A stretch of 64,000 bases of DNA from a virus. Position numbers and translations under genes: made by a program. Below, one piece after another: positions 1 through 15,164 of the stretch (position 1 is its first letter; every line of letters starts with the position of its first letter). The stretch covers positions 2,477-66,476 of IMG/VR virus record IMGVR_UViG_3300042390_000257. One strand, written 5' to 3'. Under the pieces are notes generated by a model that was not told where the DNA came from, made no database searches, and worked only from the letters and a program-made list of their open reading frames with translations.

Positions 1-37
1 CAACCAATCTCAACCAACCAACCAACCAACCAACCAA
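1..37 (+). repeat. (CAAC)n tandem repeat forming a C/A-rich, G-free 5' leader of the first ORF
   Basis: caaccaaccaaccaaccaaccaacca runs into AAAGGA and the ATG at 49. Confidence 0.8.
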
Positions 38-48
38 AGGAATCAACC

Positions 49-534
49 ATGGGACTTGACCAATACCTGTCAGCCAAGAAAACATTCAGCAACAGCCAGT
101 GGGGCAAGGATGAGGAGCGCCGAATACACGCCGAGATCGTCTCGGCGGTAGATGCATCCAGCATCCTTGAAGCCGACCACCCGTATGTCGTCGTGGAGAT
201 CACCGTGGCGTACTGGCGCAAGGCTCGTGCCATCCACGACTGGTTCTTGAGCAACTGTGTCTACGCCAACAACGCTGGCTACTCATTCCATGTCACCCGT
301 GACGAGTTGTGGGCGCTCCACGACCTCTGTGTTGTCATCCCGTTCGGGCTGGCAGTACATGGCGACGAGTACGCCGATTCACGCATCCCGAACCCGTCAT
401 GGTTCGGTGGGGGCGACGAGAAGTACGGCGACTGGTACAAGGAGAGCCTCAAGTACACCGCCGATGTCATCTTCAAGTTGCTCTCGGATGGCAAGAACGA
501 GAACTTGAGTTTTGAGTACTCGTGGTCAGAGTGA
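49..534 (+). CDS. Conserved phage hypothetical protein (MGLD...YWRKxxxIHxWF type)
   Basis: 161-aa ORF, AAAGGA SD, MGLDQY and YWRKARAIHDWF motifs recognised from a widespread phage family. Confidence 0.8.
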   Translation: MGLDQYLSAKKTFSNSQWGKDEERRIHAEIVSAVDASSILEADHPYVVVEITVAYWRKARAIHDWFLSNCVYANNAGYSFHVTRDELWALHDLCVVIPFGLAVHGDEYADSRIPNPSWFGGGDEKYGDWYKESLKYTADVIFKLLSDGKNENLSFEYSWSE

Positions 535-540
535 CCAGTG

Positions 541-565
541 GCGGTGTCCCGAGTCGGGACACCGC
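541..565. repeat. Palindrome copy 1: GCGG-TGTCCCGAGTCGGGACA-CCGC
   Basis: 25-bp inverted repeat starting 6 bp after the stop of 49..534. Confidence 0.95.
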
Positions 566-628
566 ACACTTCAACCATAAGAAATCGTTATACCTACATC
601 AACAACAACGCCGAGGAGGCAAACAAAA

Positions 629-871
629 ATGAAAGACCAACAGCACTACGAGATAGAAATCTTCAGACTCGGTTTCGGGAGTTGGTTCTCTCGGGTGTAC
701 ATCGTGCATCCAAACCCATTCGCTGACCCGATCAGAACGCAGTGGTTCACCCGTAACACACTGACCAAGGGTGGCGCCAAGCGAGAGATCAATCGCGTAC
801 TCCGTGATGAGGCAATCATCTCATCGGGCGAGCCGACATTTCAAAGCACCATCACCAAGGAGGAAAAATGA
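629..871 (+). CDS. Hypothetical protein
   Basis: 80-aa ORF, GAGGAGG SD, ATGA coupling to next gene. Confidence 0.75.
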   Translation: MKDQQHYEIEIFRLGFGSWFSRVYIVHPNPFADPIRTQWFTRNTLTKGGAKREINRVLRDEAIISSGEPTFQSTITKEEK

Positions 872-1146
872 GTAACCATTTTGCGAAAGCCACTGCGGAG
901 TTTGAGTTTCAGTACCGCATCGTGCAGACAGAGCGCGAGTTGCGAAGCGCCCAAGAGGACTACGAGTACGAGACTCGTACCCTCTGCAAGTTGGCAACCG
1001 AGCGCCTGAACGACAACATCGGTCGGGGCACGGAAGTCCTTGTCAGCAAGGCTGGGCGCCTGCTCGCACTTGAGACCAAGATTGCTGACCTCGCCCGTCA
1101 GTACGAATGGCTCATAGTGCTCAAGCAAGCACACCTTGATGCCTGA
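868..1146 (+). CDS. Hypothetical coiled-coil protein
   Basis: 92-aa ORF with AAGGAGG SD. Confidence 0.75.
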   Translation: MSNHFAKATAEFEFQYRIVQTERELRSAQEDYEYETRTLCKLATERLNDNIGRGTEVLVSKAGRLLALETKIADLARQYEWLIVLKQAHLDA

Positions 1147-1153
1147 CCAGTAT

Positions 1154-1182
1154 GGTGAGTGTCCCGAGTCGGGACACTCACC
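1154..1182. repeat. Palindrome copy 2: GGTGAG-TGTCCCGAGTCGGGACA-CTCACC
   Basis: 29-bp inverted repeat just after the stop at 1146, followed by GATAGTGA. Confidence 0.95.
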
Positions 1183-1232
1183 TACAATGGCGATAGTGAC
1201 TGATTAACCACCACCAATTAAAGGAGCCACCA

Positions 1233-2828
1233 ATGGCACTAAGTGACCGCACCAACGCCCGAAGCGCCCAAGACATCCTCGCTGAGGCTGTCGCCAAGGT
1301 CAGCACGGGCTTACGCCCATTCAGCAACCGCATCGCCCCTGAGGGCATCGTAGAGCACACGCTCGCAATCACCCCGATGCCTCACCAGTTAGTCATCGGT
1401 GAAGCCGTCAAGGCTGGGCACACTCGCCTGCTCATCGCTGACGACATGGGCGTAGGTAAGACCTACAGCGCCCTGTTGGCGCTGGATGAGTTGACCGCCT
1501 ACCCTGCGCTCATCGTGTGCCCACCAGCACTCGTGATCAACTGGGAACGCTCCATCAAGACTGCCCTGCCCCACCGCTCGGTGTCTCGCATCTCGGGTCA
1601 GAAGCCCACGAGTGTCCCCAACACGGACATCGTCATCTGTCCCGACAGCGTCATCCAGTATTGGGCGCTGGCTCCAGTCGCCCAAGTCAATTCATGGGCA
1701 CGAGCCAACCAAGGCAAGAAGCGTGAGCAACGGACACCGAAGCCCGTCAACATCCTCGCCAGTCACCCGTGGGCTGGCTTGGTGCAGGATGAGGCTCACC
1801 GCTCCAAGACCGAGGACTCGGGTCGGAGCAAGGCGATGGTCACCATTGCCAAGAACCTCAACCCCGAGGCGCCCGTGCTGTTGCTCTCGGGCACACCGTT
1901 GTTGTCCCGACCAGTGGAGTTGATTCCGCTCCTCAACATCCTCGGTCACCTGCCGAGGTTCGGTGGCGCTAGTCGCTTCAAGACTCGCTACTGCGACCCC
2001 GTGTTCAACGGCTGGGGAACGACCTTCAATGGCGCCACCAATGTCAAAGAGTTGAACGAGCAACTCACCCAGTGGGTGATGATTCGGCGCAAGCGTGAGG
2101 ATGTCATCATCCTCCCCGAGTTCTCTCGGTACATCACGCCCGTCGCATTGACTGGCAAGGCTGTCACGGACTACAAGCGAGCCGTGCGAGACCTTGAGGA
2201 GTTCCTCCAAGAGAAGCGAGACGACGACAAGTTCTCGCTCAACGACCGTGCCCACGCCATCGTTCTGCTCGGTCAACTCCGACAGATCGCTGGTCTTGGC
2301 AAGGTCAGCACCGCCGTGGATGCCACGGTCAGCCTCTTGGATGAGGGCGAGCAAGTGTTCCTCGTGACCGCCCACAAGGAGGTCGCTTGGAAACTCCGTG
2401 AGTCCCTCATCGCTGAGGGCATTGACGCCCGTACCATCGTCTCCGTCACTGGCGACGACTCGGGCAAGCAGAAGCAGGATGCCGTTGACAAGTGGCAGGC
2501 AGGCACGGCTCGTGTCCTGATCGGCAACATTCAAGCAGTCAGCGAGGGCTTGACCATGACCTCAGGTGCAACGATGATCACGGTTGAATTGCCGTGGACA
2601 CCGTCAGCGCTCAAGCAAGCCGAGGCTCGGCTCCATCGGTACGGGCAGACACGCCCGTGCACCAACAACATCCTCGTGAGTGCCCTTGATGGCGACTCGT
2701 CGGTTGACGAGCGTTTATGGGGCATGCTGGAAGGCAAGGCAGGCGTCGTCGGCGCCATCCTTGACGACTCAGCCGAGACCTTAGTCGGCGGTTCCACAGC
2801 CAATGAATTGCTGGATTCGTACCGCTGA
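1233..2828 (+). CDS. SNF2-family (HARP/SMARCAL1-like) DNA helicase/translocase
   Basis: DDMGVGKT (Walker A), DEAH, SGTP, QAEARLHRYGQ (motif VI). Confidence 0.92.
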   Translation: MALSDRTNARSAQDILAEAVAKVSTGLRPFSNRIAPEGIVEHTLAITPMPHQLVIGEAVKAGHTRLLIADDMGVGKTYSALLALDELTAYPALIVCPPALVINWERSIKTALPHRSVSRISGQKPTSVPNTDIVICPDSVIQYWALAPVAQVNSWARANQGKKREQRTPKPVNILASHPWAGLVQDEAHRSKTEDSGRSKAMVTIAKNLNPEAPVLLLSGTPLLSRPVELIPLLNILGHLPRFGGASRFKTRYCDPVFNGWGTTFNGATNVKELNEQLTQWVMIRRKREDVIILPEFSRYITPVALTGKAVTDYKRAVRDLEEFLQEKRDDDKFSLNDRAHAIVLLGQLRQIAGLGKVSTAVDATVSLLDEGEQVFLVTAHKEVAWKLRESLIAEGIDARTIVSVTGDDSGKQKQDAVDKWQAGTARVLIGNIQAVSEGLTMTSGATMITVELPWTPSALKQAEARLHRYGQTRPCTNNILVSALDGDSSVDERLWGMLEGKAGVVGAILDDSAETLVGGSTANELLDSYR

Positions 2829-2834
2829 CTAACA

Positions 2835-2863
2835 GGGGAGTGTCCCGACACGGGACACTCCCC
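2835..2863. repeat. Palindrome copy 3 (variant centre): GGGGAG-TGTCCCGACACGGGACA-CTCCCC
   Basis: 29-bp inverted repeat with 3-nt ACA loop, 6 bp after the helicase stop, followed by GATAGTGA. Confidence 0.93.
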
Positions 2864-2908
2864 ACAAATCAAGATAGTGAACACCAACCCATAAGGAGAA
2901 CCACCACC

Positions 2909-3808
2909 ATGTCCACCACCTACAGCACTGAAGCCACGCCCAAGCAAGTCCAGTTCCTGCTCTCACTGTGGAAGCAACTCAACGAGGTAGTCGTTGACAC
3001 TCAAGACCCAGCCAGCAACTGGTCGGGCGACGAGGCTCAGACCGTCAAGGCTGACAACCTCTTATCTAAGACTCTCACTGAGTTAGATAAGGCAGTCGTT
3101 ACAAAGTTCGTCAACAGCGAGAAGATTGTCCTCAGCACGGTTGAGGTGATCGGGTTTGCCGAGGGCGCAGAGTCCATCGCCAAGTCAGAAATCTCCACGG
3201 CGATTGATGTGCTCAAGCGCCTGCTTGACTCAGCCAAGGCTGAACGAGCCACATGGGGCTTGCCCACGGTTGCCCCCGACTGGGTCAGCAAGTACCCAGC
3301 AGTCCCTGCCGATGCCGAGAAGGTCATTGAGGCGAAGTTTGCCAGCAAGTGCTCAGTCTGTGGCAAGCGTGACCAGTACATCGCTTACCTCAAAGGTGGC
3401 TGGAGTGCCCTGTGCCAGTCTTGCGCCCACACTGACGGCAAGACTGACGACCGCATTGACGAGGGCATCCAGCGAGTCCTGACAGCCGTTGGCAAGGGCA
3501 ACGCCAAGGCTGGCAATGTCGGTCTCGCAGTGCCCGATCTTGACGAACTTGACGGGTTCGCTTACTACCGAGTCAGTCGCTCAGGCGTTGCCAAGGTCAT
3601 CGGTGGCTCGCACTTCAACTCAGTGCAGAACCTCCCACAAGCCAAGCAAGATGCAGTGCTTGCCGATCTAGTCAGGCACGACCTGCCCGAACTGGCTCGT
3701 GCGTTCGGTATCCACTTCAAGGTCTGCGGTGTGTGCGGTCGCACACTCAAGGATGAGCACAGCCGAGCCATCGGCATCGGCTCTGACTGCCTCGCTGGTC
3801 TTGGCTGA
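2909..3808 (+). CDS. Zinc-ribbon protein with C-terminal DUF6011-like domain
   Basis: AAGGAG SD before ATG 2909; ATPKQ N-terminus; CSVC/CQSC; C-terminal CGVCGRTLKDEHSRAIGIGSDC. Confidence 0.8.
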   Translation: MSTTYSTEATPKQVQFLLSLWKQLNEVVVDTQDPASNWSGDEAQTVKADNLLSKTLTELDKAVVTKFVNSEKIVLSTVEVIGFAEGAESIAKSEISTAIDVLKRLLDSAKAERATWGLPTVAPDWVSKYPAVPADAEKVIEAKFASKCSVCGKRDQYIAYLKGGWSALCQSCAHTDGKTDDRIDEGIQRVLTAVGKGNAKAGNVGLAVPDLDELDGFAYYRVSRSGVAKVIGGSHFNSVQNLPQAKQDAVLADLVRHDLPELARAFGIHFKVCGVCGRTLKDEHSRAIGIGSDCLAGLG

Positions 3809-3812
3809 TCGG

Positions 3813-3847
3813 TTGGGGTTGAGTGCTGTGGTGGCGCTCAACCCCAA
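3813..3847 (+). terminator. GC-rich hairpin (terminator-like, no U tract) abutting palindrome copy 4
   Basis: TTGGGGTTGAGTGC-N7-GCGCTCAACCCCAA directly after the stop at 3808. Confidence 0.6.
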
Positions 3848-3848
3848 G

Positions 3849-3865
3849 TGTCCCGACTCGGGACA
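3849..3865. repeat. Palindrome copy 4 (core only)
   Basis: TGTCCCGACTCGGGACA. Confidence 0.95.
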
Positions 3866-3925
3866 GCACAACTACATCACACCCAATCGTTAGAACTACA
3901 TAACAACAAACAAGGAGAACCGCTC

Positions 3926-4282
3926 ATGAGCAAAATAATCAACCCAATCATCAACCAACAAGGGTGGGCGCTAGTCACCGACCCTGATCTTGACAACCCA
4001 GCATGGGTTCAGTTCCAGTCCTGCGAGTTTGTGGCGAATAAAACTGGCGACCTCGTCGCCTACCAGTTCCGTGGAGTCAACCGAACCATCTCTGAAGATG
4101 GGATGGCGTACTGGCACTGGACTGACATCGCCTTGATTACATACAGCGTGGAGCGCCCACTGCACTGGCTCGCTGATGTTGACGAGGTCACCATCTATGG
4201 CTTTGAAAAAATCACATGGGCAAGTCGTCGTGAAGACGAACTGCGAGAACAAGTAGCCATCAGCAGAGGAGAAGCGGTATGA
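3926..4282 (+). CDS. Hypothetical protein
   Basis: AAGGAG SD before ATG 3926; ATGA overlap with next ORF. Confidence 0.75.
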   Translation: MSKIINPIINQQGWALVTDPDLDNPAWVQFQSCEFVANKTGDLVAYQFRGVNRTISEDGMAYWHWTDIALITYSVERPLHWLADVDEVTIYGFEKITWASRREDELREQVAISRGEAV

Positions 4283-4464
4283 CCAAGTACATCGTTCACA
4301 TCGGAACAGGAACAATCATCAATGCCGACGAGTGTGTCGTCGTTGACCTAGACAAACTAGACGACCACGACACTGAGATTTTTGACGCGGGTTGGGATGA
4401 CGAGATCATTGAGGTCGCCCAGCGTGTCGGACAACAACTACAACCACAAGGAGAACCATCATGA
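4279..4464 (+). CDS. Small acidic hypothetical protein
   Basis: 61-aa ORF, translationally coupled on both sides. Confidence 0.7.
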   Translation: MTKYIVHIGTGTIINADECVVVDLDKLDDHDTEIFDAGWDDEIIEVAQRVGQQLQPQGEPS

Positions 4465-4715
4465 AGACAGTCACCATTACACAGTGGTACGAGTTCAGCG
4501 TTGTCGCTGAGGTGCAAGTGCCCGACGACTACGAGACCGTGGACATTCAGGAAGCCTTTGAAGACTTCCCGATCAGCATTGAAGTCAAAATGCGAGACGA
4601 TGAGGGTTGGTTTGGAGAAGACCACGCCGTCATCTCGTACGCCACCGAAGACCTGACCACCACTGGTGGCATTGAAGTAATTGAACCCGAACAACCCGAA
4701 GGAGAACCAGCATGA
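4461..4715 (+). CDS. Small acidic hypothetical protein
   Basis: 84-aa ORF, AAGGAG SD, ATGA overlaps. Confidence 0.7.
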   Translation: MKTVTITQWYEFSVVAEVQVPDDYETVDIQEAFEDFPISIEVKMRDDEGWFGEDHAVISYATEDLTTTGGIEVIEPEQPEGEPA

Positions 4716-4942
4716 GCAAGCCCACCGCCCAACAGATCATTGAGGAACACAGCACGATAATTGTCACCGCATTGGAGGACTACCGAGAGTGGTGGTCAAA
4801 CAATGACGACGCAGAGGTCGTCGCTCAGATTGACGAAGCGATTGATGCGATCAACGGCTTCAGCGCCGAGGACTCAACGCTGGTGGCAACGCCTCCGTTT
4901 TATACACACCCCGACAGCAACGCATTCATTAGTTGGGACTGA
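4712..4942 (+). CDS. Hypothetical protein
   Basis: 76-aa ORF, AAGGAG SD. Confidence 0.7.
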   Translation: MSKPTAQQIIEEHSTIIVTALEDYREWWSNNDDAEVVAQIDEAIDAINGFSAEDSTLVATPPFYTHPDSNAFISWD

Positions 4943-4944
4943 TC

Positions 4945-5103
4945 ATGAGCGACGACTGGTACTGCTGTGAGTCCACGGGCGTCAAGCCCGTGGGCTTCAC
5001 CTACCACCCCAATGTCACCGTGTGCGATGCATGCGGTTTGAAGTTCCCGTACTACGACTGCGAGTGCGAACTTGTCCACGACTGTCCCGAGTCGGGACAG
5101 TAA
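4945..5103 (+). CDS. 52-aa Cys-rich protein (not in ORF track)
   Basis: Translated by hand: MSDDWYCCESTGVKPVGFTYHPNVTVCDACGLKFPYYDCECELVHDCPESGQ*; fills the gap between genes. Confidence 0.6.
   Translation: MSDDWYCCESTGVKPVGFTYHPNVTVCDACGLKFPYYDCECELVHDCPESGQ
5081..5101. repeat. Palindrome copy 5: AC-TGTCCCGAGTCGGGACA-GT
   Basis: 21-bp inverted repeat overlapping the last codons of 4945..5103. Confidence 0.95.
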
Positions 5104-5133
5104 CTCTTACCTAACAACAACCTAAGGAGAACC

Positions 5134-5352
5134 ATGCAGGTGTACCAATTCCAAGTCAAGTGGAAAGACGACGCTCCCGAGACCGAGCCAGTGTGGCAGA
5201 ACTTTGCCATCGGTGAATACAACGAGGACACCGTTGACGATGACTTTGACAACACGATCTTTTACTACGCCGAGAGCGCCGAAGAGATCATTGCACTGAC
5301 CAACCCCGACAACGACGAAGACTTTTATGTCATAGGAGGCATTAACCAATGA
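5134..5352 (+). CDS. Small acidic hypothetical protein
   Basis: 72-aa ORF, TAAGGAG SD. Confidence 0.7.
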   Translation: MQVYQFQVKWKDDAPETEPVWQNFAIGEYNEDTVDDDFDNTIFYYAESAEEIIALTNPDNDEDFYVIGGINQ

Positions 5353-5705
5353 GCAAGATTTGCTTTGAGATACTGACCGAGTTGCAGTACTACTCGGGCA
5401 TCGGTCAGAAGTGGGATTACTTCTACATTGAAGAAGAGTTAATCCCAGCCGACTGGAGCACCACCAGCCTTGACGACAAGTACGACTTCCTCAACGAGGG
5501 CGGTTACTGGCACTCGGGATACTCCACCGATGTCATTGATGAGTACGGCAAGATCGTTGATGTTGATGAGAACGGCGACGCGGGCGAGCAGGATGAAGTT
5601 GTCTGCTCCTGCGAGATCGTAGTAAGTCAGGAGAAGGAAGGATTTCTCCTCATTGGTTATTCGTTAGATAAGCAACCAAACAGTTACTTATACACAGAGG
5701 AGTAA
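5349..5705 (+). CDS. Acidic hypothetical protein
   Basis: 118-aa ORF, AGGAGG SD. Confidence 0.7.
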   Translation: MSKICFEILTELQYYSGIGQKWDYFYIEEELIPADWSTTSLDDKYDFLNEGGYWHSGYSTDVIDEYGKIVDVDENGDAGEQDEVVCSCEIVVSQEKEGFLLIGYSLDKQPNSYLYTEE

Positions 5706-5707
5706 TC

Positions 5708-5941
5708 ATGAATCCATTCAGCAAGTTAATCCTCATCGGCGCAGGAGTCAGCCTCGTGCTGGCTCTTGCGAGCCGAGATAGTGACCAGCCCACATGCAAG
5801 GTTGCCTTTCATGGCAACGGCACATGGGATGCCATTGGTTGGGACATCGCACTTGATGGTCTCAACAACTGTGACCTACCCATTCAGTATGGTGACGCTC
5901 CCGTCATCGTTAGTCCAAACGGAACATGGAGATACAAATGA
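5708..5941 (+). CDS. Small membrane-anchored or secreted protein
   Basis: Hydrophobic N-terminus LILIGAGVSLVLALA; GAGGAG SD. Confidence 0.65.
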   Translation: MNPFSKLILIGAGVSLVLALASRDSDQPTCKVAFHGNGTWDAIGWDIALDGLNNCDLPIQYGDAPVIVSPNGTWRYK

Positions 5942-8100
5942 GCAAGCCAATCATCAACCTGTCCCCCGAGGCGAAGCGTCGCCTCCAAACAGAACGCCGT
6001 CGCATCGCTCGTGATCAGAGCAAGAGCGCTCTTGTAGAGATGGAGAAAGCCCGTGGTGCGCTCCGTTCCGATTCTAGGAACCAAAGGAATCGCACCAAGG
6101 AATCACAGGGAATTGCCATCATACGCAACCTCGTGAGCCTGTGTCGTGCGGTCAATGCATCGTTCGGTGTCTCAGTACCGATTCACATGGGCGAAGCGCC
6201 TGTGGGCAGTAAATCACCAGTGGCATACACAGACGGCACAAAGATCGTCGTTAAGTACCCCATGCCAGTCACTGCCGATGAGGCTGGCAACACGGTGTAC
6301 ATCAATGACATTGAGTCGCTCAAGCGATTGGTCAGCGAGGTCAAGGCGCTCCAGTATCACGAACTAGGACACATTCTGTTCAGCCAGCACATCAACTGGA
6401 TGATGGCAGACTGTGGCTACGGCAACGAGGAGTGGGTCAAGAAGTACCCCACTCTGTCCCAAGAGACAGCCACAAGTGTGCGCCGTGCATGGAACATATT
6501 AGAAGATCAACGCATGGAAACTGCACTGGTCGCTCAGTCACCGTACCTCGCTCGCTACCTGACCTACTTGAGCGTCAACTGGATTCTCAATGAGGCGAAC
6601 TGGAGCACCGACAACGGTGGCATTGACAAGTCATCCGAGAAGGGAATCGCCTGCCAGTATTTGTTAGTTATCAATCGTCGGTTCTTACCCATAGAACTAC
6701 GCCGTAAGTCACGGAATAACTTCAACACTTACTTTGGCGATTACGCCACTGTCTCAGCCGAAGAAATTGTTCGGGAGTATTGCCGAGCAACATCGGTTGA
6801 AGACAAGGTCGTCGCTGTCATCAAGTTCCATCAGTTGCTCAAGGCGCTGGACATCGTTCCTCCACAGTTTGATGACCACACTGGTCATCCCCGTAATGGG
6901 AAGCGCCCCGTACAGGACTCGGCGGATTCGGCTGACGATCAGGATGAGGATGGCAAAGAGATCACCAAGGGTAAGTCTAAGGATAAGACTGAACCTAAGG
7001 ATGACGCCAAGGGTGACGACGAGTCAGAGGGAAGCGGATCGGGCGACCCACACGAAGGTGATGACGACGCACAGGATGGCGAAGGCTCATCTGCTGACGG
7101 TGACAACACCAATGACAGTGTGAACGAGAGTTCAAGCAACGCCGACGATGATGGTAAGTGCAACAACGATGGTGATGCCAACGATGATGGCGAGGGTGGT
7201 GGTGCTGGCGGTGACGGTGGCACGGAGAAGCCACAGCAAGACGCCGACGACGCTGGCACATCCGAGGATGACACGACCTCTGACCTCAAAGAATTGTTGG
7301 ATGAAATTGAGAACGAGATTCACAATGACTCCGACATTGAGGACACAGTCCGAGCCATCAACGAGGACTTCAACCGAGGTGACATCAAGCAACTCGCTCC
7401 TGAGTTGTCAGGCACGCCAATGGATGACGAGGGCGCCAACCGAGCACGGGACATTGCTTACCGACTCGGCACGGCGTTTGACTCGGCGTCATCGTCAGCC
7501 CTGCCAATTTGGGAAGAGGGTCATCGTGAGGGTGTCATCAACGCCTTCCGATACCGCACTCGCAACGCTGGCGACAACGAGTACCGTCGCACACTTACCT
7601 CAACGGGTAACACTGGCTTAGATATCGCCGTAACTCTTATGTTAGATACGAGCGGTTCAATGTCCAGTGTTGGTCGTGAGTTGGGCGTGAGCGGATTCGC
7701 CGTCAAGGAAGCCTGCGACCAAGTCGGCATTGACTGCACCGTGGTCACCTTTGACTCAGACTCGCAAGAGTTGTGGCGAGCGGTTGATCGCCATGTTGAG
7801 CCAGTCGCCTTAAAGCCAGGTGGTGGGACTAACCCCACAGGTGCATTCAATGTGTTGGATTCACACCGTGAGGAGCAGAAGTACCACCTCGTCATCATCC
7901 TCACGGATGGTGTTTGGAATGGCGATGTCAAGTGCCATGACTACGCCAGTGATGGTCGTGTGTTCTTGGGAGTCGCCTTTGGCGCTGAGGTTGACACTGC
8001 ATACCTCCTCAGGGTCGGTTGCGACCAAGTTGTCAACATTGACACAATAGAACAACTACCTGAAGTTGTCAGAAACTTTCTTCTGAACTTCCTTGGGTAG
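5938..8100 (+). CDS. VWA-domain protein (CobT-like architecture) with N-terminal HExxH metallopeptidase-like domain and acidic linker
   Basis: AYTDG and YHELGH motifs; NILEDQRME; D/G-rich linker; MIDAS LDTSGSM, GGT and LTDG. Confidence 0.88.
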   Translation: MSKPIINLSPEAKRRLQTERRRIARDQSKSALVEMEKARGALRSDSRNQRNRTKESQGIAIIRNLVSLCRAVNASFGVSVPIHMGEAPVGSKSPVAYTDGTKIVVKYPMPVTADEAGNTVYINDIESLKRLVSEVKALQYHELGHILFSQHINWMMADCGYGNEEWVKKYPTLSQETATSVRRAWNILEDQRMETALVAQSPYLARYLTYLSVNWILNEANWSTDNGGIDKSSEKGIACQYLLVINRRFLPIELRRKSRNNFNTYFGDYATVSAEEIVREYCRATSVEDKVVAVIKFHQLLKALDIVPPQFDDHTGHPRNGKRPVQDSADSADDQDEDGKEITKGKSKDKTEPKDDAKGDDESEGSGSGDPHEGDDDAQDGEGSSADGDNTNDSVNESSSNADDDGKCNNDGDANDDGEGGGAGGDGGTEKPQQDADDAGTSEDDTTSDLKELLDEIENEIHNDSDIEDTVRAINEDFNRGDIKQLAPELSGTPMDDEGANRARDIAYRLGTAFDSASSSALPIWEEGHREGVINAFRYRTRNAGDNEYRRTLTSTGNTGLDIAVTLMLDTSGSMSSVGRELGVSGFAVKEACDQVGIDCTVVTFDSDSQELWRAVDRHVEPVALKPGGGTNPTGAFNVLDSHREEQKYHLVIILTDGVWNGDVKCHDYASDGRVFLGVAFGAEVDTAYLLRVGCDQVVNIDTIEQLPEVVRNFLLNFLG

Positions 8101-8133
8101 GAGTTGTTATCCAAATAATTGAGAGATACCGTC

Positions 8134-8168
8134 TCTCCCCCACCTCAGTAGTACATGGGGTGGGGAGA
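8134..8168 (+). terminator. Hairpin (terminator-like) preceding palindrome copy 6
   Basis: TCTCCCCCACCTCA...TGGGGTGGGGAGA after the VWA gene. Confidence 0.55.
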
Positions 8169-8178
8169 TCGCAGTAAG

Positions 8179-8195
8179 TGTCCCGACTCGGGACA
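8179..8195. repeat. Palindrome copy 6 (core only)
   Basis: TGTCCCGACTCGGGACA; the 23-mer AAGTGTCCCGACTCGGGACAGCA is identical to copy 4. Confidence 0.95.
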
Positions 8196-8236
8196 GCAGT
8201 AATAACCTAAACCACCAAACCACAAGGAGAACCATC

Positions 8237-9505: not shown

Positions 9506-9582
9506 GTAAGCAATGTCCTCGCTGGCTGGTACCCCCACCAGTCAGCGAGGCTTTATCAACCACAACAACCAAAGGAAAACCC

Positions 9583-10071
9583 ATGAATCTATTCAAGAGA
9601 GTTGCGCTGGCGAATGCCGTTGTAGCGGAACACAATGCAGGAAAAGTACGGGCGGTGATTGCTTCCGAATACGGAATTACCGAGAACCAAGTTCAGTACT
9701 TCCTGAAGCATGCTCGTGAGGCTGGCTTGTTTGTTCGCCCCGTCAAGCGTGGTCGTAAGTCAAGCGCACAGACAACCATGCGCCGTGCCGAGATTGCCAA
9801 CCGCTACCGCTCAGGTGAGTCAGGCCCGAGTATCGCTCGCTCCCTCGGAGTGACCGTTGAGACCGTCTACACGAGCCTCCGCACCGTTGGTGTGGAACGA
9901 CGCAAGCGAGCCAACACGGAGCGTAACAACTCCATTGTGGTGCGCTACCAGTCGGGTGAGTCGGGCGTCAAGATTGCCAAAGACTTGGCAGTTACGCCCA
10001 AGGTCGTGTACGACACGCTCCACCGTGCTGGAGTTGTTATCCGTAAGAAAGAAGTTCTAACCAACGCCTAA
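9583..10071 (+). CDS. Multi-HTH DNA-binding protein
   Basis: Two clear repeats RY(R/Q)SGESGxxIAxxLxVTxxxVYxxLxxxGV plus an N-terminal HTH-like segment IASEYGITENQVQYFL. Confidence 0.8.
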   Translation: MNLFKRVALANAVVAEHNAGKVRAVIASEYGITENQVQYFLKHAREAGLFVRPVKRGRKSSAQTTMRRAEIANRYRSGESGPSIARSLGVTVETVYTSLRTVGVERRKRANTERNNSIVVRYQSGESGVKIAKDLAVTPKVVYDTLHRAGVVIRKKEVLTNA

Positions 10072-10078
10072 GACTTAG

Positions 10079-10107
10079 ACGGAGTGTCCCGAGTCGGGAC
10101 ACTCCGT
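10079..10107. repeat. Palindrome copy 7: ACGGAG-TGTCCCGAGTCGGGACA-CTCCGT
   Basis: 29-bp inverted repeat 7 bp after the HTH gene stop, followed by TTGTTGGCGATAGTGA. Confidence 0.95.
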
Positions 10108-10147
10108 TTGTTGGCGATAGTGACACATCAACCATAAGGAGAACCAC

Positions 10148-10456
10148 ATGACGATTGAGACGGGCATAGACCCGATTGCTGTTTTTGACGAGGCTGTCAA
10201 GTTACGACACCTCGCTGGGGCGCTGTACTGCGTAGCACTACATGCCCCATGCACCTGTGAAGGTGAACTCTGCCATGACCCGAATTGCGACGAATGCACA
10301 ACTGCTGTAAGTAATAACCAAGTATGCCCACGATGCATCAGCATGAGTAGGTACGAGGAATGGGTGGGCATTGAGACCCTCCCAGTCGTACACCCTCATG
10401 GGATATGGATTGGGTACAAGCCCGTAGAACCACACACCGAAGAGGAGACACAATGA
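10148..10456 (+). CDS. Cys-rich hypothetical protein
   Basis: 102 aa, several CxxC-like motifs, TAAGGAG SD. Confidence 0.7.
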   Translation: MTIETGIDPIAVFDEAVKLRHLAGALYCVALHAPCTCEGELCHDPNCDECTTAVSNNQVCPRCISMSRYEEWVGIETLPVVHPHGIWIGYKPVEPHTEEETQ

Positions 10457-10764
10457 CCATTACTGACCCATGCATCTATTGCGGTGAGTCCACCACCTTT
10501 GGTGCCACTCATCCTGACGGAACGCTCATTGGCAAGTTCATCAACCGAGTCCCTGCTGACCTTGACGGGTTTGCTTGCGGTGAATGTGCAGGCTTTGAGT
10601 GTGATGAATGCGACGCGCAGATTTACATTGACTGCGAGACTCGCGTGGAGTGGGAAGAAGACGAGAATGGCAAGTTCCATTACGGCAACTACCACACCGA
10701 GTGCTATGACGAAGCAAAACACGGTAAAGCCAAGTACGGCGAGAACATTAAGGAGACACAATGA
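10453..10764 (+). CDS. Zinc-finger-like hypothetical protein
   Basis: ATG 10453 after GAGGAG; CIYC, CGEC, CDEC, HTEC. Confidence 0.7.
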   Translation: MTITDPCIYCGESTTFGATHPDGTLIGKFINRVPADLDGFACGECAGFECDECDAQIYIDCETRVEWEEDENGKFHYGNYHTECYDEAKHGKAKYGENIKETQ

Positions 10765-11147
10765 GCACACAAGCCAGCGACTGGTATCTGTACGCTGATA
10801 CCGACCTGTTTGACCCCGAGAACACCATCCAGTTCTTCAAGTACTGGCAGGCGATCAAGGGCGAGCACATAGACCACTACCTCAAGCACAAGGAACTCAT
10901 TCCGCAATATGCATTGATTGAGAGGTTGGTTCGTGAGTTCCCTAAGTACACCGCAGAGCAAATGGATGAGTTGTTTTGCACTGGTTACGACACGGTGTAC
11001 GCCGATGAGATTGCCAAGGATTACGAAATAGAAAACGACGAAGAGTTGAAGGAACTGACCGAGAACCTCTTTGAGTACATCAAGTTACGCATTGAACAAG
11101 ATCGCCATGAGAGGGCGGTACTAAAAGCACTGGAGGAAGAATTATGA
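10761..11147 (+). CDS. Hypothetical protein
   Basis: 128-aa ORF, AAGGAG SD, ATGA overlaps. Confidence 0.7.
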   Translation: MSTQASDWYLYADTDLFDPENTIQFFKYWQAIKGEHIDHYLKHKELIPQYALIERLVREFPKYTAEQMDELFCTGYDTVYADEIAKDYEIENDEELKELTENLFEYIKLRIEQDRHERAVLKALEEEL

Positions 11148-11407
11148 GCCAGCAACAGGCTTACACGGGGAACTTAGGGATTACTCTTACCGTTCCTGAG
11201 GGGTTATATTTCCCCAACCAACATCCTGACCATACGAACACACCCGATTCGGTGTGGGGCGAAGTCGCCCGAGTAGTTAGGGAATACCTTGAGGGCATTG
11301 GTGCCGAGGTCAATGGAGTCTTCCATTATGCGACCCCGTACAAACACCCATACACCCCCCAAGTACATTCATCACACATCATCAACCAAGACATCACACA
11401 TCACTGA
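11144..11407 (+). CDS. Hypothetical protein
   Basis: 87-aa ORF, GGAGG SD. Confidence 0.65.
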   Translation: MSQQQAYTGNLGITLTVPEGLYFPNQHPDHTNTPDSVWGEVARVVREYLEGIGAEVNGVFHYATPYKHPYTPQVHSSHIINQDITHH

Positions 11408-11476
11408 GGAGTGAACAAAATGGATACAACAACAACAACACCACCAACACCACCAACGCCTGAGGAGGCAACCGAA

Positions 11477-11716
11477 ATGAATATCTTCCAAAGAAAACAA
11501 ATAGCAAAAGAAATAGCCCGCGTCCAAAAAACCAGTCAGTTTGAGATGGCAACAAATCTGCTGGAAGAAATAATGATGTTTGTTCCTGTGGACAAAGACC
11601 TCACCCCAATGGTTATTTTGGATGCACTTGGCTGTGCAGGGTTGTCACTCACCGTTGGTGAAGACGCTTCACTTACATTTATTGAAATGACAAAAAAAGA
11701 AGGAGCAACAAAATGA
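11477..11716 (+). CDS. Hypothetical protein
   Basis: ATG 11477 follows GAGGAGG and a C/A-rich leader resembling that of the gene at 629. Confidence 0.65.
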
Positions 11717-11877
11717 GCAGTAAATACAAGATCGTTCGTATGTGGAAATCTGATAAGAAAAACAAAACAATCAAGCGTGGACTCACGCTTGAACAGGCTC
11801 AAGCACATTGCAAAGACCCAAACACTAGAGAGGCTGGAGTTTGGTTTGACGGATACGAGGAAGAGGTAACGGCATGA
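11713..11877 (+). CDS. 54-aa phage protein (not in ORF track)
   Basis: [54 protein letters not shown]; AAGGAG SD; ATGA overlaps at both ends. Confidence 0.75.
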
Positions 11878-12230
11878 ACAAGACAGAGAAGAACCTAGTA
11901 ACGGAGTACATCAAACTTCACAACGAGTGCAAGGTGGCTGAGATTCGTTTGAAGGAAATTGAGAAGGCGCTCAAGCAAGCCATTGACGAGGGCGACGAAG
12001 TCGTCGTGGATGGTTATGCGCTGAAGCACATCGCTCAGGATCGTCGGTCGTTTGACGCCATTGCCCTCAAGGACTTGGTCTCACCGTCGCTGTTCAAGAA
12101 GATCACCGAGGTCAGTGTCAAGGCAAGCGCCGTAGATAGCGCCATTGAACTTGGTGCCGTTGACGCCGAGGTCATTGACGCAGTCACCGAGTTGAAGCAC
12201 TCGTCTTACTTGAAAGTGCTGGTGAAGTAG
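11874..12230 (+). CDS. Hypothetical protein with N-terminal coiled coil
   Basis: 118 aa; loosely similar in layout to 31156..31590. Confidence 0.7.
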
Positions 12231-12526
12231 TGGCTAACTTTAAGCCAGTCTTCAAGATCAGGGTGACACCAAGCAAGGACTTAGTTGTCCTTGAGGTGTC
12301 CGACCCTGACAATCCTGAGGACTTCATCCCGCTGATCAAAGACGCCGTGGATGTTGCTTGCTACGAGATCATAGAGGTGTACAACGCCGAGGAAGGCGAC
12401 GCCCGATTCTTCCGTGACTGGGAGCATGCTAAGGCGTACTACGGCAATGAGCAGTGGCTCGGGGATGATGAGTTAGGTATCAGCCTTGACGACTTTGAGT
12501 GGGATGACGAAGATGACTTTTTATAA
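12230..12526 (+). CDS. Acidic hypothetical protein
   Basis: 98-aa ORF, GTG start overlapping the previous stop. Confidence 0.65.
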   Translation: MANFKPVFKIRVTPSKDLVVLEVSDPDNPEDFIPLIKDAVDVACYEIIEVYNAEEGDARFFRDWEHAKAYYGNEQWLGDDELGISLDDFEWDDEDDFL

Positions 12527-12926
12527 GGATAAAAGTAACTATCCTGAACCCCAAATCCCAAAACAATCACCGTACGCAAAGCCGGAAGATAGTTACAACG
12601 GTGACTACGAACGGTGGAGTCCAAAAGGTAAGCCTAAGCATAAGAAACCCTCAGAAAACATAAAGCAGGGTCAACAAAACATTTCCAACGAGCCATATCC
12701 CATTGAACCACACCTCACCGAAGACGAGCGTCTCAAAGTCAAGGCTATGAAAGAGGAGTCTCGTCGTAAGTTAGTGGAACTCACCAATCAACGAAAAAAG
12801 TTGAAGGAATTAAAAGAGTTAGAAGAGTTAGAAGCAACACAGTCATGCATGTGGTGCGGTGAGGTAATGCCAAGCGAAGAAGAGTTAGAGAAGCACGAAC
12901 AACAACACTTTGAGGAAGGTGACTAA
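12513..12926 (+). CDS. Hypothetical protein with C-terminal C2H2-type zinc finger
   Basis: CMWC-x12-HEQQH at C-terminus; start uncertain. Confidence 0.6.
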   Translation: MTFYKDKSNYPEPQIPKQSPYAKPEDSYNGDYERWSPKGKPKHKKPSENIKQGQQNISNEPYPIEPHLTEDERLKVKAMKEESRRKLVELTNQRKKLKELKELEELEATQSCMWCGEVMPSEEELEKHEQQHFEEGD

Positions 12927-13348
12927 TGCAAACATTCATACCCTACGGTGATGACTTCACCGCTAATGCCAAAGTTCTAGACCGACAACGCCTCGGTAAA
13001 CAGCGCGTAGAAGGTCTTCAGATTCTGAACACCTTGACTGGCGTCAGCACTGGCTGGCGTAATCACCCTGCCGTCAAGGCTTGGGTTGGTCACGAGGAGT
13101 TGCTTGCCCATTATGTGTTCGCCATGTGCGACGAGTGGACTGGGCGCGGTTACAAGGACACCTGCCGTGACAAGGTGCGGTCGTTGTTTACGACCATTCA
13201 AGACCTCGCTGACCTGCCTCGCTTTGGCTGGCTCGTTGACCCCGAGGTTGCTAACTCACACCGAGCCAATCTTGTCCGTAAGTTGCCTGCTCACTACGGA
13301 GTGATTTGGACAGGCGTTGACATATCAACCCCATACAAGTGGTCGTAA
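12926..13348 (+). CDS. MSMEG_6728-family / pyrimidine-dimer DNA glycosylase (DenV-like)
   Basis: MQTFIPY...LDRQRLGKQRVEGLQIL...GWRNHPAVKAWVG...SHRANLVRK. Confidence 0.85.
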   Translation: MQTFIPYGDDFTANAKVLDRQRLGKQRVEGLQILNTLTGVSTGWRNHPAVKAWVGHEELLAHYVFAMCDEWTGRGYKDTCRDKVRSLFTTIQDLADLPRFGWLVDPEVANSHRANLVRKLPAHYGVIWTGVDISTPYKWS

Positions 13349-13357
13349 GGAGCCGAC

Positions 13358-13543
13358 ATGACCGATCAAGGAGCAATGCGCGTTGCTTACCTCAACGCTC
13401 TACACCAAGGATTAGCCACCGCTGAAGAAGACCTACGGGCTTTGTTAGGTGTCGCCCGTGTTCTCTTAGAGCGAGGCGACTTATCCACAGAGGATTACGA
13501 CGAGTTGGCGGCGAGGATCACCGCTTGCGAATCCCTTGGCTAG
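13358..13543 (+). CDS. Hypothetical protein
   Basis: 61-aa ORF, TAAGGAG SD. Confidence 0.65.
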   Translation: MTDQGAMRVAYLNALHQGLATAEEDLRALLGVARVLLERGDLSTEDYDELAARITACESLG

Positions 13544-13559
13544 TTTCTTATATAAAAGT

Positions 13560-13610
13560 AACCCCCCTCCCGTGACCCTTGTGGGTTGCGAGAGGGGGGT
13601 TCTTTTTTTT
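13560..13610 (+). terminator. Intrinsic terminator between the convergent + and - arms
   Basis: AACCCCCCTC...GAGGGGGGTT stem followed by T8. Confidence 0.85.
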
Positions 13611-13625
13611 GTTTACGGCTTAAAC

Positions 13626-14048
13626 CTATTTGTTTTGTCGTAGTCGTTCGCGGATAGTTTTCTCGCTGGTCTTGAAGATCACGGAAGCCTGAGCAATGGG
13701 ATTCTCAGCCTTTAACTTTCTAAGGTCTCTTACGATCTGAGTAACAGTTAAATCCTTACTCGCTCTGCCCATGCCGACATCACGGCGGTTCCTTGGTGCG
13801 ATTCCTCCCCACAGCCCGTACTTGATGTGGTTGTTGAGGGCAAAGTCTAAGCACTCAAGACGAACTGGACACTGGGCGCACATGACTCGCTGTGCCGAGT
13901 AGTTAGCCTTAGCACCGATTTCCTCCTGAAAGAAGGCGTCGGTGTTGGCGCCTCGGCATGAGGCTTGATCTTGCCATTTCAGTTCTGTGTAAGTCAGTGA
14001 TGGTAGTTCTACATGTCGCTTGTTGGATGGTATTTTGGGTTGCATCAT
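13626..14048 (-). CDS. whiB: WhiB-family transcription factor
   Basis: WQDQASC...CAQCPVRLECLDFAL...GLWGG. Confidence 0.92.
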   Translation of the reverse strand: MMQPKIPSNKRHVELPSLTYTELKWQDQASCRGANTDAFFQEEIGAKANYSAQRVMCAQCPVRLECLDFALNNHIKYGLWGGIAPRNRRDVGMGRASKDLTVTQIVRDLRKLKAENPIAQASVIFKTSEKTIRERLRQNK

Positions 14049-15127
14049 TACTTTCCGTATTGGTCAAATATCTGTTGGTGGAGTTGCGCCCCGTATTTGA
14101 TGTCACGAGCCTTTACGCCCTCGTAACAGGCTTCTCCTTCTTCTACTCGGGCATCATAAGAGCGTAACGCATTGATGTGCCGAATCCAATCTGAGGGGCG
14201 CTTTGCTGTGCGACCAATTCCTAGTATGGACTTCAGGTGCGTGTATGAGTCAAGGTTCTGAGCAATGAACGGGATACCACAGGCGCTGTATTCAAGACCC
14301 TTGATGTCTGACTTGGCTCGGTTGAATGGGATGTCATTCAGGGGCACGATGCCAACATCAAAGTTCAATCCGCTTGGGTAGTTGAGATGGTCGGTCAATG
14401 GGGTCGTTGAGACCTGATCATCCTTGAGTCGTAATGCAGATGCCATGGTCGGCATGGATGGATGCGCTCCATGGTGGTGGAGAGTTATCTTTTCTGAGTT
14501 AACAAATGGGGTTATAACTCCAGCAAGAGTCTCTAGGTCTCGGCTTCGGTGACCCGTGCTTCCTGCCCAGCCAAATGTCGGCTTGGTTGACACAACATGT
14601 TTGTACTTGGGGAAGCGAGACACATCAATGTAATTGGGCACAAGGATGACTTTTGTACCCCGAGCGAGTTGCTTGATGCGGTCATAAAGGTACGGGGTGC
14701 TTACTGTAAGTAAGTCTGAGGCGCATAAGGTCGCTTTGTAATGATTGATATTAATTTCAGGACTGGTTTTAGGGTGTGTGGCGCGGAATGCTTGATTGGT
14801 TTCAGACAACCCCCAATACCAGTCATCCACATCATTAATAATGATCTGACCTTCTTTTTGAGCAAGTTTGATACGGAGGTCAGCCCCCCTGTGCATGAGG
14901 CGTTGCATCCACACGGCGTCTACATCATGGACTGCTCCATCAGCGTCGCGTATCTGAAACGCCCCATGCTGGGGATCAAAAATTAGAGTACCGACATGGA
15001 AAGTGTGACCAGTAATGAGGGGTAGGTATTGACCCACCCGTGCCCATCCTGAGCCACCCCATCTTTCAACACCATCGTCTACTTGGTCGGGACTAACCCA
15101 GTCACCTGACGCTACTCCAATTTTCAT
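14048..15127 (-). CDS. Glycosyltransferase (GT-B fold, family 4-like)
   Basis: GAGGAG SD before ATG 15127; NDVDDWYW, GWAGSTGH, DVGIVPL...FNRAKSDIKGLEYSACGIP. Confidence 0.88.
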   Translation of the reverse strand: MKIGVASGDWVSPDQVDDGVERWGGSGWARVGQYLPLITGHTFHVGTLIFDPQHGAFQIRDADGAVHDVDAVWMQRLMHRGADLRIKLAQKEGQIIINDVDDWYWGLSETNQAFRATHPKTSPEININHYKATLCASDLLTVSTPYLYDRIKQLARGTKVILVPNYIDVSRFPKYKHVVSTKPTFGWAGSTGHRSRDLETLAGVITPFVNSEKITLHHHGAHPSMPTMASALRLKDDQVSTTPLTDHLNYPSGLNFDVGIVPLNDIPFNRAKSDIKGLEYSACGIPFIAQNLDSYTHLKSILGIGRTAKRPSDWIRHINALRSYDARVEEGEACYEGVKARDIKYGAQLHQQIFDQYGK

Positions 15128-15139
15128 TTTGTGCTCCTC

Positions 15140-15156
15140 TGTCCCGACTCGGGACA
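15140..15156. repeat. Palindrome copy 8 (core only), abutting the glycosyltransferase SD
   Basis: Minus strand reads TGTCCCGAGTCGGGACA-GAGGAGCACAAA-ATG. Confidence 0.93.
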
Positions 15157-15164
15157 ATCCTAGA

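Follow-up and report, generated by a model that had tools for sequence, protein, structure and literature searches.

A 17-nt palindrome, TGTCCCGASTCGGGACA, recurs at gene boundaries in the early arm of a viral genome analysed here over a window of 64,000 nt, namely bases 2477-66476 of the 66,476 bp IMG/VR record IMGVR_UViG_3300042390_000257 (estimated at 71% complete). Positions given below are those of the window unless the record or a relative is named. The element is real, non-random, conserved and regulatory. It is tentatively read, at a little less than an even chance, as a composite: an intercistronic RNA hairpin whose tip carries a dyad-symmetric site for a lineage-specific factor that co-ordinates expression of the early operon. 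Covariation shows that a stable RNA hairpin forms in the early polycistronic transcript, a few nt past a stop codon and with 24-67 nt left to the following start; it may serve as an intercistronic 3'-end protector, insulator or leaky stop. From its pattern of conservation the 17-nt tip, TGTCCC-N5-GGGACA, would be a two-fold symmetric recognition site, and its reader most likely a phage-encoded DNA-binding protein that acts as a dimer. With a site at almost every sizeable gap of the early arm, a single factor could control the entire early operon together, for instance by shutting it off through roadblocks as is thought for stoperators and for the phiC31 repeats. Each phage lineage has its own inner five bases, matched by all copies in a genome, and where a core lacks arms the stem is supplied by a separate adjoining hairpin.

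Exact copies of TGTCCCGASTCGGGACA were located at 545, 1160, 3849, 5083, 8179, 10085 and 15140, seven against 0.00 expected from 100 shuffles. Allowing up to three mismatches added solely the copy at 2841, which has an ACA centre and one mismatch (eight against 0.13 expected). These are the seven exact cores and the ACA-centred variant listed in the original prediction, reproduced with close to none expected in shuffles. The prediction had described an eight-copy family; eight is correct for the window, but TGTCCCG-NNN-CGGGACA occurs 12 times in the whole record, with four copies left of the window (record positions 555, 1373, 2005 and 2453). All 12 lie in the first 17.6 kb, the early arm, and the 12 copies of G003, a complete relative, are likewise all inside 69466-86829 (17.4 kb of 91.4 kb). 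Eleven of the record copies are fully intergenic in a stretch of which intergenic DNA makes up 9%; copies lie 8-78 nt past the preceding gene and 8-67 nt ahead of the next. Placement at a gene boundary had been said to be invariable, which holds for these 11 but not for the copy at 5083, found within the last 19 nt of an open reading frame (ORF). Eleven copies serve plus-strand genes and one sits between two minus-strand genes. In the four long-arm copies of the window the arm begins 5-7 nt past the stop codon, in line with the earlier description of a start shortly after a stop.

G003 and G004 carry one more (TGTCCCACCATGGGACA) in a long non-coding stretch approximately 440-900 bp upstream of the first gene (G003 69466), and G002 has a one-mismatch core at 70179 in the non-coding stretch upstream of its first gene. 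In place of the extra core of G003 and G004, this record has a shifted palindrome, GTCCCCTCGGGGAC, at record positions 108-126.

The core is extended in 7 of the 12 copies by arms of 4-8 further complementary nt per side, the letters of which differ between copies, yielding perfect stems of 11-16 bp with a 3-nt loop. The arm pairs GCGG/CCGC, GGTGAG/CTCACC, GGGGAG/CTCCCC, AC/GT and ACGGAG/CTCCGT were found as previously described. Predicted folding energies of the seven armed copies ranged from -27.9 to -32.3 kcal/mol (z -4.8 to -7.4), the bare core giving about -11 kcal/mol. Covariation was determined for 56 aligned copies (52 distinct) from five genomes, with 500 shuffles and slid partners as controls. 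Paired cells amounted to 76.8%, compared to 66.9% in shuffles and 33-46% with slid partners; double-sided changes numbered 107 against 61 in shuffles, and the covariation score was 0.253 against 0.128. None of the 500 shuffles reached any of these three values. An orthologous compensatory change was evident where ACGGAG/CTCCGT in this record corresponds to ATGGGG/CCCCAT in G004. G-T oppositions inside otherwise perfect arms were present at four distinct positions in 10 copies, and these can pair as G-U only in the transcribed sense; the reverse case, an A-C opposition flanked by pairs, was seen once and is ambiguous. Covariation of the arms, together with the sense-only G-U pairs, shows a stable RNA hairpin that core and arms are predicted to form in the transcript just past stop codons. 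A search of the window and its left flank against Rfam at gathering thresholds returned no matches.

Two armless copies clarify how stem and core are related. Copy 8 (3813..3865, plus strand) consists of a strong hairpin at 3813-3847 followed directly by the armless core 3849-3865, and copy 10 (8121..8195, plus strand), upstream of the AAA_5 ATPase gene, of hairpins at 8121-8137 and 8138-8165 followed by the armless core 8179-8195. Such upstream hairpins had been predicted at exactly these two copies. The two-part layout recurs, built from other stem letters, at the orthologous boundaries in G001, G003, G004 and L201, the second clade having it at both of these boundaries too, which bears out the proposal that the stem can be handed to a neighbouring hairpin. 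An armless core beside a separate hairpin indicates that stem function and core function are separable. A plain intercistronic hairpin without a core was read from the sequence between the AAA_5 and helix-turn-helix (HTH) genes at 9517..9557 (plus strand; CCTCGCTGGCTGGT...ACCAGTCAGCGAGG, then CTTTATC); it shows that genes of this arm are as a rule followed by a hairpin past the stop codon, the core being an addition, usually nested in the tip.

Conservation of the core was examined in 14 contigs with 99 copies, gathered by pattern scan and with the SNF2, AAA_5 and first early proteins as queries. The outer six pairs, TGTCCC/GGGACA, were invariant in all 99 copies and in none of them included a G-U. 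No G-U occurs among the 52 x 7 core pairs of the 52 distinct copies, though the arms tolerate it. The inner five nt are of one type per contig and differ between contigs: GASTC, with GTGTC/GACAC variants, in this record, G002 and L196; ACSGT in G003, G004, G006, G007, L192 and L197; ACSGT with ACGAT/ATCGT/ATTAT variants in G005 and L201; and GTWAC in G001, L199 and L200. Pair 7 is AU in 31 and GC in 21 of the 52 distinct copies, is never unpaired, and is uniform within each of the 14 contigs (99/99 copies), with no mixed contig. Scans of IMG/VR for TGTCCCC..GGGGACA and TGTCCCT..AGGGACA gave single or local double matches and no multi-copy contig.

The change of inner core was examined between this record (G000) and G003, which share 91-98% nucleotide identity over most of the arm and 98-100% identity in their SNF2, VWA, AAA_5 and HTH proteins. 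When their 11 orthologous copies are compared, none of the 132 positions in the outer 12 nt differs, against 50 of 55 in the inner five, and the 60 flanking nt show between 0 (copy 10085) and 42 differences. G003 and G005, conversely, are both of the ACSGT type although their proteins share only 42-93% identity; core type does not track phylogeny. At copy 9, which lies within coding sequence, the core change in ACSGT relatives alters two codons, for residues 49-50 of a 52-amino-acid protein. Since the arms co-vary, the outer core is invariant in 99 of 99 copies and the inner core switches genome-wide between close relatives, both sequence and stem are under selection, as had been proposed.

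These observations bear on the alternative that the copies are ordinary intercistronic stabiliser or terminator hairpins, with a tip held in common by descent, module duplication and recombinational homogenisation and with no specific factor involved. Neighbouring copies are clearly paralogous, as the three TGT-centred copies with CCTCGGGGTGAG flanks illustrate; leaders and Shine-Dalgarno (SD) regions are repeated too, slot-level indels occur between copies, and the phage encodes RecA and a RecE-like match. However, homogenisation of 17 nt only, with the adjoining arms staying different, is without a known mechanism. The outer core is invariant across genomes whose proteins share only 42-76% identity while the arms turn over, the inner core has been switched in all copies between genomes of 95-98% identity, and one core has persisted within an ORF even though this meant changing amino acids. 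This explanation is accordingly considered quite unlikely.

Several features are a better match for a reader of double-stranded DNA with two-fold symmetry than for a reader of an RNA loop: the centres of the half-sites are separated by 10 bp; the middle letter S occurs in both orientations about equally (four AGT and four ACT in the record), or is W in G001, with no bias in orientation relative to transcription; the outer stem is free of wobble pairs; and one copy lies within an oppositely transcribed block. Six remote relatives (L195/G008, L212, L219, L237, L240 and L241), whose AAA_5 proteins are 34-47% identical, each repeat a palindrome of their own. G008 (L195; AAA_5 36% identical) has the 17-mer TGCGTTAC-S-GTAACGCA, with all six copies inside 7 kb of 93 kb, co-varying arms and syntenic gaps flanking the SNF2 gene. 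The other palindromes are TGTAAC-N-GTTACA (seven copies), TGTTGT-S-ACAACA (four, with arms and a TACACT box), TGTGAC-N4-GTCACA (five), CCTAAC-S-GTTAGG (four, overlapping the SD) and GTGACA-NN-TGTCAC (four). With spacers of 1-4 nt in these other relatives, a tight hairpin is not possible.

The same 17-mer is not confined to phages. Exact TGTCCCGASTCGGGACA was found at 121 loci or more in bacterial genomes, far above chance (including L282-L361 and L404-L407). Among the matches listed, conjugative-element-like loci of Streptomyces hold it in tandem arrays 24-32 nt apart, together with Prim-Pol, DUF3631, relaxase, SPDY and GntR genes; a Piscirickettsia plasmid has it twice at the end of the parB gene; and a Paracoccaceae metagenome-assembled genome contains 17 dispersed copies of TGTCCCG-NNN-CGGGACA, 10 with the centre found in the window. 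No proteins common to the phages and these bacterial loci were seen among those matches. The Streptomyces arrays and the plasmid parB context are settings in which sites bound by proteins are to be expected.

The foregoing also bears on a purely RNA-level function, in which the whole hairpin, tip included, would be read by a phage or host RNA-binding or RNA-cutting protein and the DNA palindrome would be a by-product. The reader might be, for instance, an endoribonuclease specific for hairpins that splits the polycistronic early transcript into messages of one gene each, or an antiterminator that loads at every hairpin. Such a function would account for the arm covariation and sense-strand G-U pairs, for the position right past stop codons and ahead of unstructured C/A-rich leaders, and for the separate hairpins at armless copies; parts of the arm are also covered by RNA-library contigs of two river metatranscriptomes, 20 in one and 9 in the other, which yield no transcript ends and could stem from DNA carry-over. 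Yet the loop is not conserved as read in the transcript, since AGU, ACU, UGU and ACA all occur in one genome, and RNA-binding proteins usually read loops or bulges and not a regular helix. The absence of G-U from the core pairs, the 1-2 nt spacers in relatives' palindromes, and the arraying of the same 17-mer in plasmid and integrative and conjugative element contexts also speak against it, and no nuclease or RNA-binding family was found among Pfam/PHROG matches in the early arm. A purely RNA-level function is a real possibility, though an unlikely one.

The composite reading, hairpin plus DNA site, has its own difficulties. Dyad symmetry is broken at position 8 in 4 of the 12 copies here and in 5 of 11 in L201, and hairpin-mediated inversion of the loop could produce both centre orientations without a dimer. 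A double-stranded DNA operator needs no arms, so that part of the function at least lies at the RNA level, and the whole tip could be readable as RNA. The reading does not account for the concerted switch of approximately 12 sites, and the host might supply the factor. A search for the binding protein was negative among the candidates examined, which were the triple-HTH protein, the first early protein and the proteins that track core type. The triple-HTH protein (9583-10071) differs between this record and G003 at two positions in the first recognition helix, which were not fixed once more contigs were added; with no fixed differences between core types it was rejected as the reader.

Fixed differences between GASTC and ACSGT contigs are concentrated in the leftmost genes, with 64 of 253 residues in the first early protein, which is encoded at record 595-1356 and so outside the window on its left, and 36, 19 and 20 differences in the next three small proteins. 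The first early protein is a candidate reader only. Its link to core type rests on two versus four contigs and is confounded by adjacency, since the gene adjoins two copies and linkage alone could explain the correlation. The protein had no Pfam match, its AlphaFold model is all-helical with a predicted local distance difference test score of just 69.6, and Foldseek gave no match at E <= 0.001; these points, too, count against a phage-encoded reader having been located. VIA-align reached a Z of 7.5 at most, for the C-terminal helical hairpin only, and its Atlas neighbours include DUF3102 (score 0.87), which is a lead only. About 60 metagenomic homologues carry at least four variants of a central helix-loop-helix-like segment; no further contigs bearing the protein were found beyond the six known. 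Of the proteins that track core type in both clades there is one, the variable f4, and no residues are common to the ACSGT genomes of the two clades. Clade II contigs are without the leftmost genes.

An extension of the composite reading would be a private "address code" for each lineage, in which the inner five tip bases are read by a cognate phage factor on DNA, and perhaps in the RNA hairpin too, with code and reader switching together within a nearly unchanged genome. This is speculative and, as it stands, doubtful. Were it true, the phages would possess a phage-specific operon-wide switch or processing system immune to cross-control by co-infecting relatives, and the occurrence of TGTCCCGASTCGGGACA in Streptomyces elements and at a plasmid par locus would place the reader in a widespread, unnamed family of mobile-element DNA-binding proteins. 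Should the composite itself hold, the phage would couple an RNA-level insulator with a lineage-private control site at the DNA level, offering compact orthogonal parts (hairpin, site and reader) for operon building in Actinobacteria. Natural specificity swaps between near-identical genomes are what finding the reader by genetics or pull-down needs.

The relationship of the repeats to gene content was examined in the relatives. A cassette of two genes, f6-f7, lies between two copies here; only f6 is present in G006, and neither is there in G003 or G004. In these last two genomes f7 sits past another copy, and G004 has an extra copy and gene. The junction of the f7 move is in the repeated leader, approximately 15 nt past the core, and not in the core. 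Five of eight blastn breakpoints between G000 and G003 fall no more than approximately 80 nt from a copy. Synteny holds for most copies in the two clades, and even in G008. Contigs from DNA metagenomes often break at copies, which is an assembly effect.

It had been suggested that the repeats form a gene-shuffling system. Some gains, losses and moves of genes between relatives are indeed bounded by copies, but at least one junction lies in the leader and most copies are stably syntenic. Recombination or mobility sites resembling attC, REP elements or PeSLs, at which a recombinase or homologous exchange shuffles cassettes, would explain the f6-f7 variation, the extra copy and gene of G004 and the clustering of breakpoints, and in Cluster O mycobacteriophages two indels are flanked by 17-bp repeats (PMC4351075, from the available text). 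Conversely, no integrase, transposase or HUH enzyme was detected among the Pfam/PHROG matches of the ORFs scanned, and phage mosaics are in any case usually joined at gene boundaries. Taken with the synteny and the position of the f7 junction, this makes recombination sites very unlikely as the function of the core.

The leaders between a copy and the next start (1-48, 562-628, 3866-3925, 8196-8236 and others) are nearly without G and T, contain CAACCAACC... runs and end in a repeated SD block, AAGGAGAACC or AACGCCTGAGGAGGCAA. The repeated leaders are themselves likely to be recombination joints. The integron attC sites offered as an analogue, which are imperfect palindromes with R/L boxes and extrahelical bases and go with an IntI-type integrase, are not supported, with no integrase among the Pfam/PHROG matches of the ORFs scanned, no attC features and cores that are perfect palindromes. 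A repetitive extragenic palindromic (REP) element mobilised by a REP-associated tyrosine transposase (RAYT) was also rejected, as the ORFs scanned contain no Y1 (HUH) transposase family and the copies have no GTAG flank.

The hairpins were compared with terminators. Eleven of the 12 copies are without a U-run, copy 10085 alone being followed by U-rich TTTGTT. The arm's own terminator, a canonical bidirectional one at 13562..13610 read from the sequence where the plus-strand early arm meets the minus-strand genes, has a G+C stem followed by TTCTTTTTTTT, with eight T in a row. A terminator consensus scan gave 17 matches against 15.7 expected, none at a copy. Unlike the terminator at 13562-13610, 11 of 12 copies lack a U-run, and the core hairpins are therefore not canonical terminators; an intrinsic (Rho-independent) terminator was rejected on this ground and for want of any copy in the scan, despite the G+C-rich hairpin.

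A promoter consensus scan gave 11 matches against 9.4 expected, again with none at a copy. A box, GATAGTGA, containing the -10-like GATAGT, follows 4 of the 12 copies by 14-18 nt, including those at 1192..1199 (15 nt past core 6), 2873..2880 (15 nt past core 7) and 10116..10123 (14 nt past core 11), all on the plus strand; the remaining eight copies have no box. Four of the six forward occurrences in the record lie 31-35 nt past a core start, and likewise in G003 and G004. The box is absent from G001 and from clade II genomes, and its spacing to the core is 14-19 nt across genomes. Its variable spacing and absence from clade II suggest a separate optional element, not part of the repeat. It is perhaps a -10 region. 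One reversed occurrence (TCACTATC) was noted at record 1403-1410, 13 nt past core 1373, and this would fit a protein site better than a -10 element. A second box, CGTTAnAnCTA, has two forward matches in the record, both 39-41 nt past a core start (586..596, plus strand, past core 5, and 3888-3898 past core 8).

The original prediction had each unit read hairpin, motif, leader and SD. As a universal promoter unit this could not be upheld, GATAGTGA following only 4 of 12 copies and none in the second clade. A promoter role for the palindrome, be it as an N4-type hairpin promoter or in early promoters as their -35 region or an activator site, is the least credible of the explanations weighed and is regarded as extremely unlikely. 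It would draw on the GATAGTGA boxes, on the agreement of GGGACA with TTGACA in four of six letters and on the L219 palindrome, which contains TTGTCA 17 nt before TACACT. Set against this are the variable spacing, the copies and clade without a box, the unenriched promoter scan and the copy at 15140, which leaves just 12 nt before the ATG. The N4 analogy, which calls for a giant virion RNA polymerase or another phage RNA polymerase, is in particular not supported, no such enzyme having been found among the ORFs scanned in the window and G003, some small ORFs lying outside that scan, and the largest ORF of the window being 921 amino acids.

Among known systems a close parallel came from a scan of the Streptomyces phage phiC31 (NC_001978), in which an invariant TACTCACGTGAGTA was found 15 times. 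The flanking letters vary from copy to copy and are in part complementary (CAACC/GGTTG, CTACC/GGTAG, for example), most copies lie a few nt past a stop codon, and one is a full U-tract terminator. These are presumably the conserved inverted repeats (CIRs), operators of the c repressor, a role reportedly described by Wilson et al. in 1995 and Smith et al. in 1999. Like the element described here, they are an invariant palindrome nested in variable complementary arms at gene boundaries. They differ in sequence, in geometry (7-0-7 or 8-2-8, here 7-3-7) and in being genome-wide and not restricted to the early arm. PhiC31 is temperate with a known repressor, whereas no integrase was found here in the ORFs scanned; a search for a homologue of the c repressor in crude ORF sets of six related contigs gave a best blastp E of 0.99 and nothing with phmmer.

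T7 early RNase III sites are hairpins between the genes of the early polycistron, longer than those described here and with internal loops and approximately 20 bp or more of double-stranded RNA. In the promoter early stem-loop (PeSL) cassettes of T4-type phages, a stem-loop and a strong sigma-70 promoter flank small genes and mediate their shuffling. Both resemble the present case as intergenic hairpins that split an early polycistron into units, but the hairpins within each of those systems share structure and not an invariant 17-mer, and PeSLs carry strong sigma-70 promoters, against a -10-like box at just 4 of the 12 copies in this record.

Cluster O mycobacteriophages (Corndog) hold upwards of 30 instances of a 17-bp repeat, 5'-TGTTCGGNNNCCGAACA, reported to have no known function, for which the authors predict a dimeric DNA-binding protein (PMC4351075, from the available text, as are the comparisons with Cluster O that follow). 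Both repeats are 17-bp dyads of 7-3-7 form starting with TGT and ending with ACA, and five of seven half-site letters are the same. In both, the half-sites are invariant, the 3-nt centre is variable and found in both orientations, and the flanks are G/C-rich; both are enriched in the short intergenic gaps of a non-structural operon, and both belong to phages that infect Actinobacteria and lack an integrase, here in the ORFs scanned. The Cluster O sequence itself is not matched here, where the half-site is TGTCCCG (PMC4351075). Its copies are genome-wide with about one third within genes, compared to 12 here, in the early arm only and 11 of them intergenic, and it belongs to Mycobacterium siphoviruses, unrelated to the uncultured freshwater myovirus (PMC4351075). 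Co-varying extended arms, sense G-U pairs and a lineage-specific inner-core switch are present here and are not described for Cluster O in that text (PMC4351075).

The stoperators of Cluster A mycobacteriophages (L5, Bxb1) similarly comprise a short site repeated many times in intergenic gaps, believed to halt transcribing polymerase via one bound phage protein, the site being specific to each subgroup (in part from PMC4351075). They are 13 bp, asymmetric, oriented with transcription, without hairpins and present in both arms of temperate phages. A Cluster A stoperator was rejected, the site here being symmetric with its centre in both orientations.

The earlier supposition that no recognised element has this sequence, and that it may be undescribed, does not stand in that form, given the similar Cluster O 7-3-7 repeat (PMC4351075, available text) and phiC31 palindromes. 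Outside both families by sequence and partner protein, the element would by analogy nonetheless work most like them. What is new is that it nests in co-varying sense-strand hairpins, that it keeps to a single operon and that its inner core switches in concert and by lineage. Dyad-symmetric 17-mer repeats in actinophages have been on record since 2015 without a function, and the present phage group is a cleaner case, because its copies are few, in one operon, almost all intergenic and nested in co-varying hairpins.

By the gene content of the record and of G003, the phage is an uncultured freshwater myovirus, with an actinobacterium as the most likely host. The window encodes two WhiB proteins, an SNF2 helicase, an AAA_5 ATPase, the triple-HTH protein and a T4 endonuclease V-like glycosylase (Pfam/PHROG), as well as a glycosyltransferase and a queuine tRNA-ribosyltransferase-like protein; its largest ORF is 921 amino acids. 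G003, of 91,403 bp with terminal repeats present, adds a family A DNA polymerase, RecA, DnaB, primase, and contractile-tail and baseplate proteins. The DNA runs containing the phage are lake-water metagenomes. Megablast of window 1-16000 against isolated phages returned no match; tblastn against the same gave weak Bacillus and Caulobacter phage matches only for the HTH protein, and none for the first early protein.

The remaining copies of the window are as follows. Copy 5 (541..565, plus strand; core 545-561, arms GCGG/CCGC) begins 6 nt past the stop at 532-534 and folds at -28.5 kcal/mol (z -4.8). Copy 6 (1154..1182, plus strand; core 1160-1176, arms GGTGAG/CTCACC), 7 nt past a stop and ahead of the SNF2 helicase gene, folds at -29.0 kcal/mol (z -7.0), and copy 7 (2835..2863, plus strand; core 2841-2857 with centre ACA, arms GGGGAG/CTCCCC), 6 nt past the SNF2 stop, at -28.4 kcal/mol (z -7.4). 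Copy 9 (5081..5101, plus strand; core 5083-5099, AC/GT flanks) is within the last codons of the 52-amino-acid ORF 4945-5103. Copy 11 (10077..10109, plus strand; core 10085-10101) has arms AGACGGAG/CTCCGTTT with one G-U and folds at -27.9 kcal/mol (z -6.6). Copy 12 (15140..15156, minus strand) is an armless core between minus-strand genes, 8 nt past a stop and 12 nt before the glycosyltransferase ATG, beside its SD; its orthologues in G001 and L201 have 7-bp arms with a compensatory change, ATAGTGG/CCACTAT versus ACAGTGG/CCACTGT.

Of the armed copies, the three lying furthest left (record 1365-1397, 1997-2029 and 2416-2477) have a 5' arm, GGGGTGxx, that can also pair with an upstream CCACCC/CCCC run (CCACCCTCGGGGTGG), and this alternative pairing could represent a switch between alternative folds. 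At the copy at record 2453 the unit CCCCTCGGGGTTAG is duplicated.

Several neighbouring features were also observed. The queuine tRNA-ribosyltransferase-like protein (16423-17841, minus strand; phrog_887, E 3.6e-36) is kept in all relatives and suggests DpdA-type 7-deazaguanine modification of the phage DNA. The two WhiB-family genes (13626-14048 and 15776-16180, both minus strand; Pfam E 1.4e-19 and 1.7e-16) adjoin the early arm in a minus-strand block and show 99% identity between core types. Window 11426-11457 is a AACAACAAC-type simple repeat with a contig depth of 430-590 and loose ends in the metagenome runs, the high depth probably being a low-complexity mapping artefact. A 724-amino-acid protein (ORF 5926-8100) contains a long, acidic, Asp/Gly/Glu-rich low-complexity insert at 6900-7300 and shares just 42-44% identity between the two clades.

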